From contig DASRKX010000061.1 in the NCBI GenBank assembly GCA_035648735.1, positions 528 to 64,527 on the forward strand: a stretch of DNA of 64,000 nt, in the 5' to 3' direction. Positions 2,441 through 64,000 of this stretch are shown in pieces. Every line of letters begins with the position of its first letter. The first letter of the stretch is position 1. Below the pieces are notes generated by a model. It did not search any database, was not told where the DNA came from, and worked only from the letters and a program-made list of their open reading frames with translations. The DNA comes from Stellaceae bacterium (GTDB lineage: Bacteria > Pseudomonadota > Alphaproteobacteria > ATCC43930 > CGMCC-115725). The translations under genes and the position numbers were made by a program.

Positions 2441-5116
2441 TTACAGGATTTCTGATTTGGCGGCAGGCGATTTCGGCTCGCAGCAGAGTGCCAGCAGATA
2501 ATGCGCCATCGGATAAAAGCCGGTATGGACCACCTCGTCGTTCATCGAGAACAGGAATACCGTCTTGAAGTGGCGTTCGAGCAGCCGCTTGAGCTCGCTT
2601 CCCGTCTTGCAGTTGATGTGCCCGGCCTTGCTCTGAGGCGAGCCGTAGGGTTGGGATTCGAGCGAGGGGCTCCCGACGATGAGAACGCCGCTCTCGGCAA
2701 GCGATGACGAGAGGTGTCGCAGGTAGGTGTCTTCCCGTTCGGGGGCGATGTGCTCGATCACATCGAGGCTGAAAATCGCGTCGTGACGGCGGGGTAACGG
2801 ACCGGCGAGAATATCGTGGACATGCGCCTCGACCGGCCAGCGCGAGGAATGGCGGCGGCGAATATCCTCGATGAAGAGCGGATCGAAATCGTAGACGGTT
2901 ATTTTTTGCACCTCCTGGAGCACGAGGCGGCTGGCGAAGGCGTCGCCGCAGCCGATTTCGGCCACGTCGCGCCGTCCGCTCAGCATCTTGGAGACGAATT
3001 TGTAGCGCGCGAGGATGAAACCGAGGCGGCGTGGATCGTCATGCCAGATCTGATTCGTCATCAGGCCGAGCGTCGCGATGCCAATTTGGTCGCGGACGTC
3101 GAGCAGATCCTGGTATTGCGGTTCCTTGGTGAGCGTTTCCCTCGCCTTGACGGCATCGACGGGTTTGCGACTCCCGGCCGGCGCGACCCCGCGCTCGACG
3201 CGCAGAACCATATAGGCGCTTGAGACGCGACGTGGCGCTGTCTTGCCGCCCTGGGCGCGCCGAATAGCCGCGTTGCAGGCAAGGCTGACGCCGAGCATGA
3301 CCGGTAGCTTCACCGCCTGCAGCGGCAGCCTGAACAGCATCCGCCATGATCCCGAAACGATGTCGATCAGTTCGCCGACCGAGCGCCGGGAGAGCGAATC
3401 CGAAAGGCCGGCGATCGAGCGGTAAACCATCGAACGCAGGCGGCTTCCCGGCACATAATGCATTTCGAGCGGGGTCACCGTCGGCCGCAGAATGTGCGCG
3501 GCGCTCAGGGCCAGCGCATGGCCGAAGGTCCCGTCGTCGGAAATCCGATGCGGGTTGCGGACGAGAACGAGGATTTGGCTGCCAACCTTCATCGACGGCA
3601 GCACGCGGTCGATAATCTCTTCCACCCGCGCGAGGCCGCACGGCGCAATCTCGATCAGGCAAAGCTCATGGGTGTCCCTCGGCACGACCTCGGATTCATC
3701 GTCGGCGCCAAGCAGCTGCCACACGGGCATCCGGATCGAATGCGGCGCCGCATCGCCGAGCCAATCAGTGAGAATGCTGGGCGTCTCGGAGACGACCAGA
3801 AGACGCCGCGACGGCCCGGCCAGGAACGCCTCAAGCTTGGCGAGCGGCAAGCGGAGATCGGGCCACAGCGGATGCCAAAGCGGCAAATTCGGCGGCGAAC
3901 CCACCACGCGGCGGCGCAGGCGGTCAGCCCAACGCAGCAGGCCGAAAGCCGGACGGCCGCCTGCCCCGCCCGTGGCGTCGGTCTTGTGCCGCGCCGCCGC
4001 TTCGAAAGCCGCGATGGCTCCGCGCCAATAAGGATGGTCGCGATAAGGCTGCGGCTCCGGCGCCATGGCCTGGCCGATTTCGGCGATGAACGCGTCGGCC
4101 GCGGCCGAAATCGCGGGCAGCGCGGCGGGCGGCGCAGCGGCATGGAAGACAAGCCGATAGCCCGCGTTGCGGCGATGCTGGGCCGTCGTCCATTCCGAAA
4201 GATGGGCGGCGAGCGCGGTGGAATCGATCGGCCCCAGGCGCAGGAAGCGCTCCTCGTGATGATAGGGCTGCATCTCGACGACGAGATATTCGTCTGAGTC
4301 CGTCAGCATGGCGATGGTGCCCGACGGACACATCTCGGGTACGAAGGAATAGTCGCAGGACGCGCCGACCACGAATTCGACGATCTCGGGCCGGATGCCG
4401 ATCATGTGCATGAGATAGAAACGGCCGATCATGGTCTCGGCGTCGACCCGCCAGAAAAGCCGGTTGGCATGGCGGGCGTGCGACATCGGCAGATTGACCG
4501 TATTCGCCATCGTCACCGGATGCAGATGGGGCAGCGCCCAGCGCATCAGTTCGCGGGCGGGCAGCGCCAGGACGGGTTCGGCCGGATCGAGGCGCTTGGC
4601 CAGCCACGGCCCGGCGTCCTCCTCGACGATCTGGAAATTGCCGGCGAGCACCGCGCTGGCGCCCGCACGCAGGCGGGCGAGCACCGAGGATAACGAGCCG
4701 TCCGCCATGATGTAGTCCGAGACCAGAAAGATGAAACAGCTATCCACCATCGCCGGACCCACGGCGCGCACCGCGCGGGCATAGGCCAGGGTTACGGTGG
4801 TCGAGTAATTTCCGTCGCTGATAAGATCGTCGATCGGCTCGAAACGGACCGCGCAGATCGCGGCGAGACGACTGAAAGCGCGGTGCGCCCGGATCGTGGC
4901 TTCGTCCCGGCGGCGCGTCAGGAATACGAATTCCGTCGGCAAGGCCTTCGCAAGTCCGGGAATATTTCCGGGTGCCAGGAGGGTCGGAAGGCTGACCGTC
5001 AGGAATTGCTGGATGAACCGCTGCCCCCAGACCGGCAGCAGCAGCTTGACCGCGCTCGGCGGCGGCCGAGTTGCCGCGGACGACGTCAAGCCAAATGCCG
5101 TACGGTCTTCAGGCAT
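2441..5116 (-). CDS. 891-aa multidomain protein: unassigned roughly 600-aa N-terminal region plus C-terminal class I SAM-dependent methyltransferase
   Basis: C-terminus carries VAEIGCGDAFASRL (motif I), IFSLDVIEHIAPE and GVLIVGSP. The N-terminal part (LLLPVWGQRFIQQFL...VSDYIMADGS) matches no family I can name by eye. Its stop is 2 nt from the next start. Confidence 0.8.
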   Translation of the reverse strand: MPEDRTAFGLTSSAATRPPPSAVKLLLPVWGQRFIQQFLTVSLPTLLAPGNIPGLAKALPTEFVFLTRRRDEATIRAHRAFSRLAAICAVRFEPIDDLISDGNYSTTVTLAYARAVRAVGPAMVDSCFIFLVSDYIMADGSLSSVLARLRAGASAVLAGNFQIVEEDAGPWLAKRLDPAEPVLALPARELMRWALPHLHPVTMANTVNLPMSHARHANRLFWRVDAETMIGRFYLMHMIGIRPEIVEFVVGASCDYSFVPEMCPSGTIAMLTDSDEYLVVEMQPYHHEERFLRLGPIDSTALAAHLSEWTTAQHRRNAGYRLVFHAAAPPAALPAISAAADAFIAEIGQAMAPEPQPYRDHPYWRGAIAAFEAAARHKTDATGGAGGRPAFGLLRWADRLRRRVVGSPPNLPLWHPLWPDLRLPLAKLEAFLAGPSRRLLVVSETPSILTDWLGDAAPHSIRMPVWQLLGADDESEVVPRDTHELCLIEIAPCGLARVEEIIDRVLPSMKVGSQILVLVRNPHRISDDGTFGHALALSAAHILRPTVTPLEMHYVPGSRLRSMVYRSIAGLSDSLSRRSVGELIDIVSGSWRMLFRLPLQAVKLPVMLGVSLACNAAIRRAQGGKTAPRRVSSAYMVLRVERGVAPAGSRKPVDAVKARETLTKEPQYQDLLDVRDQIGIATLGLMTNQIWHDDPRRLGFILARYKFVSKMLSGRRDVAEIGCGDAFASRLVLQEVQKITVYDFDPLFIEDIRRRHSSRWPVEAHVHDILAGPLPRRHDAIFSLDVIEHIAPEREDTYLRHLSSSLAESGVLIVGSPSLESQPYGSPQSKAGHINCKTGSELKRLLERHFKTVFLFSMNDEVVHTGFYPMAHYLLALCCEPKSPAAKSEIL

Positions 5117-61116: not shown

Positions 61117-62483
61117 GAGGCGACTTTTCTTTCCGTCGCGCTGCGGCCGAGCTCGCCGAGGCCGGTGTAGATGACACCCGTGGGCAATTCGACGTTGGCC
61201 GCGCCGAAATTGTTCCAGAAATCGAAGATCACGCCGGGCCGCGCCATGCTCTCCGCCAGCGCTGATAGCGGCATCTTCTCGAAGCAGGGATGATTATTGG
61301 CGATGACGACCAGGTTTGCGCCGGCAAAGGCGGCGTCGATGGATTCGACCGGGTCGAGCTTGAAGGTGTCGTGAATGGTTTTCGCGGTCACGATCGCGTC
61401 GAAACCGCGGAACCGCGCCGACGGAAAGGTTTCGCGCAGCGCGGCGAGGATCGGTTTGGCCATGGTGCCGCGCAGGTCGTCGGTTTCGGGTCGCCCCTTG
61501 AACGCCACGCCGGCCAGCGTGACGATGGGAGTCGCCGGAAAATTTGTCGACTGCTCGCAGAATTCCTTCAACCGCGAAACGATTTCGCCCGGCTGGCGCT
61601 CGTTCGTCCGCCGCGCCGACATGATGATCTCCGGCGAAATGCCGAAGCGCTTGAGGCCGTTGGCCAGGATATACGAATCCTTTTCCAGGCACGGGCCGCC
61701 GACTGGGCCCGGCATCGGCAGATTGGTGCGCGCATAGCCGAGCTTGCCGGCGCGGATGACTTCAACCGCGGAAACGCCGATCGCATCGGCGATCCGTGCG
61801 ACCTCGTTGGAAAGGCCGAAATGAACGTCGCGCTGAGAATTGTCGATCAACTTGATGAGCTCGGCCGTCTCCAGGCTTGAAACCTGCACCACCGTCGGCG
61901 TGAGGAAGCTGAAAATCTGTGCCGCGCGGATCCGCGAATCCCGGTCGTGACCACCGACGATCTGCGGCAGCTCGCGCAACTCCTGAAGCGCCTGGCCCTC
62001 CAGCGTCCGCTCCGGACAGAAGACGAGATCGTAGGTCCGCCCCGTGCGGTCGAGAATCGGCTTGACGATGGCGCGGGTGGTGCCGAGCTCGACCGTCGAG
62101 CGCATCACCACCATGTCCCCGTCCTTGAGATGGCGCGCGATCTCGCTAACAACGTTGTTCATCATGTCGACCCGGACATGACCAGCCTCATCGAGCGGCG
62201 TGCCGACAGTGACGACGAAAACCGTCACCTGCGCGTTTTCGGGGATGTGCTGCGTCGCCGAAAACCGGCCGGATTTGGTGACACGGCTCAAGCGCCCGTC
62301 AAGACCTGGTTCGTGGAAATGCGCCTTGCACTGGGCGAGACCGCTCACGACCTCCGGACGGATCTCGACGCCGTGCACGCGGAATCCCACATCGGCCATG
62401 ACCACGCCGAGCGTGAGGCCGACATATCCCAGCCCCATGACGCAGACTTCGCGGTCGCGGAAGCTGTCGGGAAATGCGCTCAT
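61113..62483 (-). CDS. Nucleotide-sugar dehydrogenase (UDP-glucose/GDP-mannose dehydrogenase family)
   Basis: Trimmed to ATG 62483 (ATGA overlap). VCVMGLGYVGLTLG, FCPERTLEG, GGPCLEKD (catalytic Cys). Confidence 0.9.
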   Translation of the reverse strand: MSAFPDSFRDREVCVMGLGYVGLTLGVVMADVGFRVHGVEIRPEVVSGLAQCKAHFHEPGLDGRLSRVTKSGRFSATQHIPENAQVTVFVVTVGTPLDEAGHVRVDMMNNVVSEIARHLKDGDMVVMRSTVELGTTRAIVKPILDRTGRTYDLVFCPERTLEGQALQELRELPQIVGGHDRDSRIRAAQIFSFLTPTVVQVSSLETAELIKLIDNSQRDVHFGLSNEVARIADAIGVSAVEVIRAGKLGYARTNLPMPGPVGGPCLEKDSYILANGLKRFGISPEIIMSARRTNERQPGEIVSRLKEFCEQSTNFPATPIVTLAGVAFKGRPETDDLRGTMAKPILAALRETFPSARFRGFDAIVTAKTIHDTFKLDPVESIDAAFAGANLVVIANNHPCFEKMPLSALAESMARPGVIFDFWNNFGAANVELPTGVIYTGLGELGRSATERKVAS

Positions 62484-63082
62484 GCGCGTGCCTTTGCATG
62501 CGGCCACGGCATCGGACCGAAAGCCGGGACCGCGCCGCGCAGAATCGCGAGGCCGAGCGCGGCTATATGCATTGCGTGATTGAAGCGTCCATCGGCGATC
62601 AACCGCGGAGCCTCAGCCACCGGCACCAGAACCCGCGCGACCTCGGATTCCGCGGTGAAGTTGGGCACCGGCACGAGATCGCGTGCAACGAAGGCCCAGA
62701 AGCGGTTCTCCAGCCGTCCGGTATCGGGATAGAAGCAGCCGAGCGCAATTGGCGATGACGCCGGGCGGAATCCGGTCTCCTCGGCAAGCTCGCGCACCGC
62801 GCAATCCAGCGGCGCCTCGTCCGCGCCGAGCATTCCGGCGGGCAGTTCCAGCGTGACCGCATCGACCGCCGGCCGGTATTGGCGGACGCAGACGAGATCG
62901 TTCTTCGGCGTCACCGCGACGATGCAGACGTAATCGGTTTGGGCAAATGAATGAAACACGGCGTCGTCCGCGCCATCGGTGGCGACAGTGCGTTCCACGA
63001 GACGCACCCAGGGCGACAGCGCGTGCTCGGCGCGCTTGACGGTCCGGCGTCCCATTGTGGGAGTGTTTTGCAATTTTTCCAT
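62480..63082 (-). CDS. NUDIX hydrolase
   Basis: Trimmed to ATG 63082. Complete Nudix box GMLGADEAPLDCAVRELAEETGF (Gx5Ex7REUxEExGU). Confidence 0.8.
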   Translation of the reverse strand: MEKLQNTPTMGRRTVKRAEHALSPWVRLVERTVATDGADDAVFHSFAQTDYVCIVAVTPKNDLVCVRQYRPAVDAVTLELPAGMLGADEAPLDCAVRELAEETGFRPASSPIALGCFYPDTGRLENRFWAFVARDLVPVPNFTAESEVARVLVPVAEAPRLIADGRFNHAMHIAALGLAILRGAVPAFGPMPWPHAKARA

Positions 63083-63091
63083 GCTACCGCA
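63080..63091 (-). promoter_or_regulatory. ops-like element (candidate RfaH recruitment/pause site)
   Basis: The minus strand reads TGCGGTAGCATG, versus E. coli ops GGCGGTAGCGTG. That is a 10/12 match, with the contiguous G2-C9 core plus T11 and G12 conserved. It overlaps the ATG of the first operon gene and lies 72-83 nt after the NusG-paralogue stop. Confidence 0.35.
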
Positions 63092-63162
63092 CTCCGGGTG
63101 ACTCGCTTCTTTCCGGAGCAACTGAAGTTGGATGGCACGGCCGCCGCTTTGCGGCCGGTCTG

Positions 63163-63663
63163 TTACGCCGCGGCGACCGCCGTGACGGGTACGACGGCCC
63201 GCACCGCGCGGCCGAGAAGTGAGAACAGCAGCACCACGCGGTGCGCGTCGTGCATTTCCTGGAAGAGGCCGTCGCAATCGGCGAACGGCCCCTCGAGCAG
63301 GCGCACCGCTTGGCCACGCGCGAACGCCGGCGGCGACAGCTTGACCGCGCCGGTCTCGTCCTGCCGCGCCATGATTTCATCGATAATCGTATCCGACACG
63401 CGGCGCGGCAGATCCCCGTCCGTCAGGATGTAGCGCACGCCGACGGTGCCGTTGATCGAGCGCCAGCGAGTCTCGGCCGGGTCGAGGCGGACGAAGAGAT
63501 AACTCGGGAACAGCGGCCGCAGCACGGTGGCGAGGCGGCGGGCGTGCCGCACGCGCCGCTGATAGCGCGGCAGGTAGGGCGTGAAACCCTGAAAGCGAAG
63601 ATGCCGCATCGCCTTTTCCTCGGCGCGCGGCTGCGTCTGCACGACGAACCAAGCGGCGCCCAT
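63163..63663 (-). CDS. NusG-family transcription antiterminator paralogue (RfaH-like)
   Basis: 166 aa. NGN-like WFVVQTQPRAEEKAMRHLRFQGFTPYLP...LFPSYLFVRLD. KOW-like FARGQAVRLLEGPFADCDGLF. Located in a polysaccharide locus rather than a secE-nusG-rplK context. Confidence 0.8.
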   Translation of the reverse strand: MGAAWFVVQTQPRAEEKAMRHLRFQGFTPYLPRYQRRVRHARRLATVLRPLFPSYLFVRLDPAETRWRSINGTVGVRYILTDGDLPRRVSDTIIDEIMARQDETGAVKLSPPAFARGQAVRLLEGPFADCDGLFQEMHDAHRVVLLFSLLGRAVRAVVPVTAVAAA

Positions 63664-64000
63664 CAGGCTGTCTCCCCGCCGGTTGCCGGCCGCGGCGAAA
63701 TCCGCAGAATGGGCGGCGCGAAAACCCGCCGGTGCCCGAGCACGGCGACCAGCCCGTCATAAGATTCCTGCGGCTTGCGCCCTTCGGTAATGACAACGAC
63801 GTCATCGGGTCCGACATCCTCGAAATCGCGCACGACCGGCAAGCCCGCCACGCGCGGCTGATTAGTCGTCGGATCGAAAACGCTGAGCAATTCGACGCCG
63901 GCTCCTTCCGCCGCCAGCATGGCGATCTCCGCCAATTCGCCAGCGCCGTAGAGGATGACCCGCTTGTTTCCGGCCGCGGCGCAGCGCGCGAAAACGTCGG
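63663..64000 (-). CDS. Partial CDS (5-prime end outside the window); Rossmann-like C-terminal segment, possibly a Rex-like/CoA-binding-type regulator domain
   Basis: My translation shows the frame is open to the window edge: DVFARCAAAGNKRVILYGAGELAEIAMLAAEGAGVELLSVFDPTT...GLPVVRDFEDV. TGATG junction with the NusG paralogue. Function uncertain. Confidence 0.6.
   Translation of the reverse strand, partial: DVFARCAAAGNKRVILYGAGELAEIAMLAAEGAGVELLSVFDPTTNQPRVAGLPVVRDFEDVGPDDVVVITEGRKPQESYDGLVAVLGHRRVFAPPILRISPRPATGGETA

Follow-up and report, generated by a model that had tools for sequence, protein, structure and literature searches.

RfaH and ops are the textbook example of a regulator that is recruited via non-template DNA. 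Here we describe a putative relative of this system in a stretch of 64,000 nucleotides from a Stellaceae bacterium (contig DASRKX010000061.1, positions 528 to 64,527), hereafter called the window. On its minus strand, the gene for an RfaH-like NusG paralogue (NusG-SP; 166 amino acids, 63163-63663) is followed by the ops-like 12-mer TGCGGTAGCATG (63080-63091), which lies on the non-template (sense) strand ahead of a polysaccharide gene array of about 49 kb. Comparison with related alphaproteobacterial loci suggests that this 12-mer probably forms the core of a conserved, roughly 40-nt element, which would load the adjacent paralogue onto RNA polymerase.

In E. coli, ops bases C3-G8 are needed for the recruitment of RfaH and T11-G12 for pausing, and K10, H20, R23 and R73 are the RfaH side chains that touch ops G5 and T6 (PMC5995543). 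E48 is required for the autoinhibition of RfaH (PMC7593976). The recruitment signal of UpxY is about 40 bp long and has been found experimentally to combine three parts: a pause hairpin stabilised by NusA, a non-template DNA hairpin, and upstream duplex DNA, which the NGN domain reads (PMC11685472). RfaH-like genes in Alphaproteobacteria make up 18% of all rfaH genes in the survey of Wang et al. (2020), where they have cell-envelope genes as neighbours (PMC7593976). This survey names a cluster 'CL4', associates one RfaH cluster with a helix-turn-helix regulator, gives no recruitment sites and states that the recruitment mode of E. coli RfaH alone is known (PMC7593976). Literature searches for RfaH/ops in alphaproteobacterial taxa and for the motif string yield only this 2020 survey and no description of the element, which is weak evidence given the thin coverage of subscription journals.

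The paralogue gene ends with the stop codon TAA at 63165-63163 and the next ATG is located at 63082-63080, leaving the 80-nt gap that the preliminary description of the locus had reported. The 12-mer is identical to E. coli ops (GGCGGTAGCGTG) at 10 of 12 positions, including 2-9, 11 and 12, and its positions 10-12 cover the ATG of a NUDIX hydrolase gene; both statements of that description hold, and the overlap turns out to be specific to the window locus. Matches to the 12-mer with two or fewer mismatches number 17 in the 64-kb window as compared with 10.7 ± 3.3 in shuffled sequences, and a degenerate ops pattern is not enriched in the window either (3 matches, 3.6 expected). The 8-mer GCGGTAGC, for which about 5 chance copies per window had been estimated, is expected only 2.3 ± 1.4 times from shuffles and is observed 8 times. 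The copy at 63083-63090 is the sole one on the sense strand of the array. The seven others, one of which (731-738) had already been noticed, start at 731, 21888, 37491, 39295, 42555, 55174 and 58696 on the plus strand, antisense to minus-strand genes and in all three frames. None of these seven carries a TCACCC box or a match to the covariance model R1 described below, and their surplus is probably compositional. Because the 12-mer is insignificant in the window alone, the decision falls to the comparative test.

The comparison set consists of 80 loci from 80 species-level alphaproteobacterial genomes, whose paralogues are 46-79% identical to the window protein. Conservation of the 12-mer in related genomes was the sequence-based test that the preliminary description had proposed, and an exact GCGGTAGC is present on the same strand within 400 nt past the paralogue stop codon in 64 of the 80 species. 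The background frequency of the 8-mer elsewhere in the same loci is 33 copies per 1.25 Mb on both strands, that is, about 0.01 per 400-nt interval. The distance from the stop codon to GCGGTAGC has a median of 59 nt and lies between 48 and 81 nt in 59 of 65 loci (the 64 and L001, the window's own contig in public assemblies). Conservation extends beyond the 8-mer that was used for selection: T1 is found in 62, T11 in 52 and G12 in 49 of 64 loci, a YG dinucleotide occupies ops positions 11-12 in 49 of 65, and each of the upstream positions -9 to -3 (TCACCCG) is kept in 57-64 of 64. The spacing between this upstream box and the core is invariant, with alignment columns 30-56 free of gaps, and no consensus appears in the alignment of the intergenic DNA that flanks the element. 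The conserved position settles the question, in line with the earlier argument that the placement and not the match itself carries the signal.

Several loci deviate from this arrangement. L043 has a T6-to-C variant of the core, and L016 carries the full motif on the sense strand 2.9 kb further downstream. L063, whose contig ends at the gene, offers no downstream sequence for the comparison. Thirteen loci (L005, L009, L024, L035, L036, L038, L041, L045, L069, L072, L075, L077 and L082) keep the paralogue together with the regulator gene that precedes it and have no element within 4 kb downstream. The next gene begins almost directly after the paralogue in L009, L036 and L038, and L075 has a degenerate version of the element, TCACCCGGCACACGCGGTAAGG.

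The conserved unit begins with a hairpin, the 3' arm of which is a nearly invariant TCACCCGG box that directly abuts T-GCGGTAGC-N-TG. The 5' arm is variable with the consensus yCGGGTGA, and the loop is mostly 4-9 nt long with a full span of 1 to 25 nt. In the window, the arms CTCCGG (63118-63113) and CCGGAG (63097-63092) form a hairpin (63092-63118, minus strand) that is found in the centroid fold as well as by covariation, and the nearly invariant box TCACCCGGAG (63101-63092) contains the 3' arm. The proposal of an ops-like 12-mer as the signal is therefore right as to the conserved core, whereas the actual signal is the hairpin-ops element of about 40 nt and not the bare 12-mer. A covariance model, R1, built from 16 loci of standard geometry gives 67 matches in 689 kb, nearly always one per locus. 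Its single match on either strand of the 64-kb window spans the whole hairpin-ops element (63077-63120, minus strand) with 53.9 bits and an E-value of 1.7e-11.

Covariation supports the hairpin. In 66 sequences, 81.4% of the cells are paired as compared with 75.8 ± 0.7 in column shuffles (0 of 500 reach the observed value), only 33-51% of the cells pair when the partner is slid, and cells with a double change number 50 as compared with 22 ± 6 in shuffles. One pair of the hairpin is CG in 30, UA in 18, UG in 12 and GC in 3 sequences, with 2 cells unpaired. The alignment of the R1 matches is fitted to the model, so that these figures lean towards structure; an independent, register-anchored script agrees with them. 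This script scores the pairing of the arms over 10 positions and finds 7.89 paired, as compared with 7.47 ± 0.07 when arms are exchanged between loci and 6.75 ± 0.09 when the upstream sequence is shuffled. The U-G wobbles and the variable loop indicate a single-stranded structure of the sense strand and not a palindrome bound by a protein as duplex; such a duplex operator was rejected on account of these wobbles, of spacing that varies and of arms that are unequally conserved. A-7 is present in 64 of 64 loci, yet its pairing partner is U in only 33 of 66. Because the 3' arm is conserved beyond the need for pairing, the TCACCCGG box is probably also read as sequence.

Other interpretations of the conserved block were considered and rejected. 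A sigma-54 promoter does not fit, because GG and GC are 9 and not 10 nt apart and the second G is variable, and a loop of 1 to 25 nt rules out the hairpin arms as -35 and -10 elements. Ops positions 10-12 read ATG, GTG or TTG in 43 of 65 loci. However, only 14 of 65 have a reading frame of 100 codons or more that opens with this NTG, and a better internal ATG mostly exists, which argues against a conserved start codon or leader peptide; in L003, the closest relative, the frame from positions 10-12 stops after 8 codons. A plain MAFFT alignment with RNAalifold finds only a GC/GC mini-stem, since the variable loop lengths misalign the 5' arm. Rfam 15 holds no family for the element, and none of its families reaches the gathering score in a set of 16 related loci. 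JUMPstart (RF01707) matches below threshold at 63080-63108 (12.5 bits, gathering score 35), and the matches of Hrs13, mir-995 and P36 are at chance level on the wrong strand or in the wrong region.

The reading frame at 63163-63663 had been described as an NGN+KOW protein of 166 residues and annotated as an RfaH-type NusG paralogue. Its domain assignment is borne out by four lines of evidence: the Pfam NusG NGN domain matches with 1.7e-17, the NCBIfam RfaH model aligns with residues 5-163, PDB chains of the NusG C-terminal domain match residues 111-157, and AlphaFold2 (AF2) predicts a beta-barrel for the C-terminal domain. Pfam makes no KOW call in the paralogue. The RfaH-type identity stands insofar as the best family model and the best structure are both RfaH, and fails insofar as the scores fall below the RfaH equivalog cut-offs and several residues for DNA contact and autoinhibition are replaced. 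TIGR01955 (RfaH) is the top NusG-family model with 115.9 bits, yet it does not reach its cut-off of 144.5, and neither does NF006534 (RfaH) with 81.3 bits against 124. The scores for UpxY, NusG and LoaP are 76.6 (cut-off 100), 55.9 and 43.3 (cut-off 125), respectively. The best PDB match over the full length is E. coli RfaH (5OND, E-value 7e-12). The AF2 model, based on 72 homologues, has a predicted local distance difference test (pLDDT) score of 89.6, and its C-terminal domain is a beta-barrel (pLDDT 81-89) and not a helical hairpin. The N-terminal domain superposes on RfaH (8PEN and 5OND) with 1.6-2.3 Å over 94 residues. A further structure similar to the model is the 'NusG-RNA complex' 8F5G, with a template modelling (TM) score of 0.58.

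Equivalents of RfaH residues H20, Q24, F56, T72, G74, V75 and R138 are kept in the window protein. Residues corresponding to RfaH K10, H20, R23, R73 and R16 are Q11, H21, F24, V74 and K17, respectively. Among 65 relatives, H20 is conserved in 50 and R23 in 48, 57 have K or R at the position of R16, Q or H takes the place of K10, and the equivalent of R73 is always hydrophobic (V, I, F or L). The position of E48 is R49 in the window protein and A or R in relatives, never E. Furthermore, the HTTT motif is replaced by R-W-R-S and N147 by G, and the Rho-contact loop reads L-L-G, as compared with I-F-G in NusG and L-I-N in RfaH, a sequence that is ambiguous as to the suppression of Rho-dependent polarity. 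Judged by its sequence, the paralogue is RfaH-like and not an E. coli-type RfaH. Only half of the reading head is conserved, whereas the DNA core is entirely of the E. coli type.

The linkage between element and paralogue is also seen when the search starts from the motif. Metagenome contigs were scanned for TCACCCGNNNTGCGGTAGC, which gave at least 120 stretches, and 99 of them have at least 650 nt upstream and can be tested. Among these 99 testable matches listed, 58 follow the paralogue gene directly on the same strand, in another 5 the gene is found at a different place in the locus, and 36 lack it. Of the 41 non-adjacent matches among those listed, about 25 lie inside long open frames without a 5' arm and are chance matches, and about 15 look like genuine intergenic copies. 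L059 has a second hairpin-ops copy, MKVVILCGGKGTRIR (2840-2883, minus strand), which precedes a sugar-nucleotidyltransferase gene by 47 nt as part of a divergent operon's leader and has no paralogue gene directly upstream. The extra copies in L059 and L016 are all on the sense strand. The L059 copy and the orphan copies suggest that the paralogue is able to serve sites that do not directly follow its own gene. Thus, the usual arrangement is cis-adjacent, and some capacity to act in trans appears to exist.

The best reading of these data is a cis-encoded RfaH/ops system with a hairpin-assisted pause and an architecture like that of UpxY/opsX, its function being predicted. Transcription would start at a sigma-70-type promoter upstream of the MarR_EPS-like regulator gene, past the end of the window. 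RNA polymerase would then pass the regulator and paralogue genes, and a fraction of it would get beyond the GC hairpin that follows the paralogue stop codon. The 3' end of the ops-adjoining hairpin lies 11 nt upstream of U11 (63081), the predicted pause position, so that a nascent RNA hairpin could form by the time the polymerase arrives. A hairpin that ends 11 nt upstream of the RNA 3' end is the geometry of the his-type (class I) hairpin-stabilised pause. This hairpin and the consensus-pause bases (G2 at -10 and T11-G12 at -1/+1) may together hold the polymerase. The non-template GCGGTAGC in the bubble would fold into the ops mini-hairpin (G2:C9, C3:G8, GGTA loop) and be read by the NGN domain, and the TCACCCGG box in the just-rewound upstream duplex would probably be read too. 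The loaded factor is predicted to stay on the polymerase and to exclude NusG and Rho throughout the array of about 49 kb, thereby acting in antitermination.

Several observations weigh against this RfaH/ops-like loading mechanism. Two of the four E. coli ops-contacting side chains (K10 and R73) are replaced, and a third, R23, is F in the window protein. AF2, which can miss alternative folds, predicts no autoinhibited alpha-hairpin state. Fifteen of the 80 loci, L016 among them, lack the element within 400 nt past the stop codon, and the paralogues from element-bearing and element-less loci do not differ at the mapped residues. The conservation of the 3' arm could reflect recognition as RNA, and the 12-mer by itself does not stand out in the window. 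Finally, according to the proposal of a preprint, RfaH homologues that are cis-encoded and of the beta type do not need ops for their recruitment (PMC13015549). For the branch described here, the conservation of the core argues against such ops-independence. Loading near the site of synthesis has been discussed for the same cis-encoded beta-type homologues (PMC13015549), and the tight spacing between stop codon and site fits such loading, as does the predicted lack of autoinhibition.

A more specific proposal, which we regard as possible but put forward with reserve, is that the locus exemplifies an undescribed and widespread alphaproteobacterial cassette of MarR_EPS-like regulator, beta-type RfaH-like factor and hairpin-ops site, in which a factor without autoinhibition still depends on the strictly conserved ops core. 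Specificity would come from the hairpin-stabilised pause and from a site about 60-85 nt past the stop codon of the factor's own gene. If so, this placement would release the new protein beside the polymerase that it is to modify. Recognition of ops would then predate the metamorphic state, in which the factor is autoinhibited and acts in trans, and the cassette would be an intermediate between NusG and E. coli RfaH. Such a cassette would also counter the notion of ops-independence for cis-encoded RfaH homologues of the beta type.

Recognition of RNA in the manner of LoaP has to be weighed against loading through non-template DNA. The paralogue would then bind the nascent hairpin and the single-stranded GCGGUAGC, and the likeness to ops would be partial or convergent. 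RNA-hairpin recognition has been proposed for LoaP in work cited in PMC11685472, and at the present locus a covarying hairpin with a sequence-conserved 3' arm stands directly before the core. The lack of conservation of K10 and R73, the key DNA contacts in E. coli RfaH, and the likeness of the model to 8F5G also agree with this explanation. However, the core shares all eight bases of positions 2-9 with E. coli ops and has the pause dinucleotide in register, the LoaP model scores only 43 bits, and a similarly placed hairpin-coding region of the UpxY system is read as upstream duplex DNA and not as RNA (PMC11685472). RNA recognition is unlikely.

Quite improbable, too, is a leader signal that works independently of the paralogue, such as a pause or attenuator, an RNA processing site or a translation control that sequesters GGAG, the two being neighbours since both mark the head of the cluster. 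The 3' arm of the window locus includes a GGAG, 9 nt ahead of the ATG. However, position 0 is G in 33 and C in 27 loci, so that GGAG occurs in only about half of them, and the NTG at positions 10-12 is usually not a gene start. The roughly 15 genuine-looking metagenomic copies without a paralogue directly upstream, among the matches listed, and the 15 loci that have the paralogue and no element within 400 nt past its stop codon are compatible with an independent leader. By contrast, the cargo genes vary while the paralogue-element pair is fixed, and the core is the known loading site of the closest characterised relative of the paralogue. A chance match, with the 12-mer merely separating a Shine-Dalgarno sequence from the NUDIX start codon in a GC-rich genome, would agree with the 17 matches against 10.7 expected in the window and is already refuted by conservation in 64 of 80 species (less than one locus expected from background), whatever gene comes next, and by the single window match of R1 at 53.9 bits.

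The paralogue had been placed at the head of the cluster. A regulator gene (63663-64000, minus strand, continuing past the window end) precedes it instead, its stop codon and the paralogue ATG sharing 1 nt (TGATG), and the paralogue is the second gene of a two-gene regulatory module. The full regulator gene (L001 9345-10001) encodes 218 residues with a MarR_EPS-like winged-helix N-terminus (TIGR04176, 55 bits against a cut-off of 88, E-value 6.7e-15) and a Rossmann-like C-terminus. In 74 of the 80 loci, the regulator is the immediate upstream neighbour of the paralogue and has the same orientation. Most loci (L003-L082) share the motif cTTGACGTTCA-N5-TGAAC...TATGTTCA-N5-TGAACA upstream of the regulator gene, a sigma-70-type promoter with two GTTCA-N5-TGAAC palindromes over the -35 and -10/+1 regions. 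The promoter/operator maps to L001 9273-9320, with hexamers at L001 9273-9302 in a consensus scan, about 350-390 nt past the window end (approximately 64345-64391 in window numbering). This looks like autorepression by the MarR_EPS-like protein, with GTTCA-N5-TGAAC as real operators.

The promoter consensus scan finds no sigma-70-like site between paralogue and element, and the stop codon of the paralogue is separated from the hairpin by about 20 nt in many loci, which leaves no room for a promoter. The lack of a promoter-like site before the element points to a single transcription unit of promoter, regulator, paralogue, (GC hairpin), hairpin-ops element and cargo genes; alternatively, a promoter may lie inside coding sequence. 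The GC hairpin right after the paralogue stop codon (63138-63157, minus strand) is as first described, since CGGCCGC (63157-63151) pairs with GCGGCCG (63144-63138) through 7 G-C pairs in the centroid fold and no U-tract follows. GC-rich hairpins of other sequences follow the stop codon in about 20 loci with longer spacing, and a few (L008, L006, L033, L042 and L066) have a T-run after the hairpin. These hairpins may act as leaky terminators or as 3' stabilisers of the regulator transcript, thereby setting the ratio of regulator to cargo transcripts.

The first cargo gene in the window encodes the NUDIX hydrolase (62480-63082, minus strand; L001 10582-11184; Pfam NUDIX 4e-13), which holds this place in 1 of the 80 loci, the window locus alone. 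It may start at ATG 63082 or at the in-frame ATG 63055. The sequence GGAAAA after ops is kept as DNA in several loci, and the sole NUDIX homologue in the set starts with MNKVQSN as compared with MEKLQNT in the window, so that both starts are possible. The polysaccharide array (13505-62507, minus strand), delimited by the tiling of open reading frames, comprises about 42 co-directional, tightly packed genes over about 49 kb and is the presumed target of the paralogue. Instead of the 35 co-directional genes counted previously, about 43 minus-strand reading frames of at least 150 residues tile 13.5-63.1 kb with small gaps between them. Pfam matches include UDP-sugar dehydrogenases, epimerases, C-methyltransferases, glycosyltransferases, SIS, an ABC transporter, HldE-like PfkB and cytidylyltransferase, and UDP-GlcNAc 2-epimerase, the theme being sugar-nucleotide and polysaccharide metabolism. 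Divergent sulfate-activation genes adjoin the cassette outside the window on the opposite strand (L001 6496-9188); they encode a CysD-like PAPS_reduct protein and a CysN/APS-kinase fusion. These neighbours hint that the polysaccharide may be sulfated.

For a large branch of the RfaH family in Alphaproteobacteria, which takes in Bradyrhizobium, Pseudolabrys, Xanthobacteraceae, Rhodospirillales and Stellaceae, the element provides a concrete candidate recruitment site. The GCGGTAGC core is common to alpha- and gammaproteobacteria though half of the contact residues differ. The covariance model R1 can be used for regulon mapping, and the element bears on how giant polysaccharide operons of about 50 kb are transcribed in full length in soil bacteria. 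The category of the system is left unchanged by the finding.

The paralogue is, like E. coli RfaH, a two-domain NusG paralogue of about 165 residues and has RfaH as its best family and structure match. G2-C9 and T11-G12 of ops are identical in the two systems, and in both the site is on the non-template strand and precedes a long polysaccharide operon. However, E. coli RfaH comes from a monocistronic gene and works in trans, whereas the gene described here is cis-encoded in the operon, 80 nt upstream of the site. E. coli ops lies in a 5' leader and has G at position 1, whereas the present site follows two genes about 1.3 kb into the transcript and has T. K10, R73, E48 and HTTT of RfaH are replaced, the prediction for the C-terminal domain is a beta-barrel instead of an alpha-hairpin, and a covarying hairpin and a conserved upstream box belong to the signal. 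The gammaproteobacterial JUMPstart element shares a stem-loop that closes 0-1 nt before ops, upstream of polysaccharide genes (PMC2864571). In contrast, the present element has the stem GGGTGA/TCACCC, is alphaproteobacterial, follows a coding gene and not a promoter, and scores 12.5 bits against the 35 of RF01707.

Bacteroides UpxY/opsX resembles the present system in that the paralogue is encoded inside its own target capsule/EPS (exopolysaccharide) operon and is paired with a second regulator gene (PMC11685472). Both signals are about 40 nt long and made up of several parts, namely a hairpin for pausing, an upstream region with sequence specificity and a hairpin of non-template DNA. However, opsX precedes upxY, whereas the site here comes after the gene of the factor. 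The partner is a MarR_EPS-like DNA-binding protein and not UpxZ, for which no dedicated search was made, the core is of the E. coli type, GCGGTAGC, and the UpxY model score is 76.6 against a cut-off of 100. The hairpin-ops element thus joins three systems that have been treated apart: E. coli ops in its core, JUMPstart in its stem-loop, and Bacteroides opsX in its pause hairpin and upstream box.

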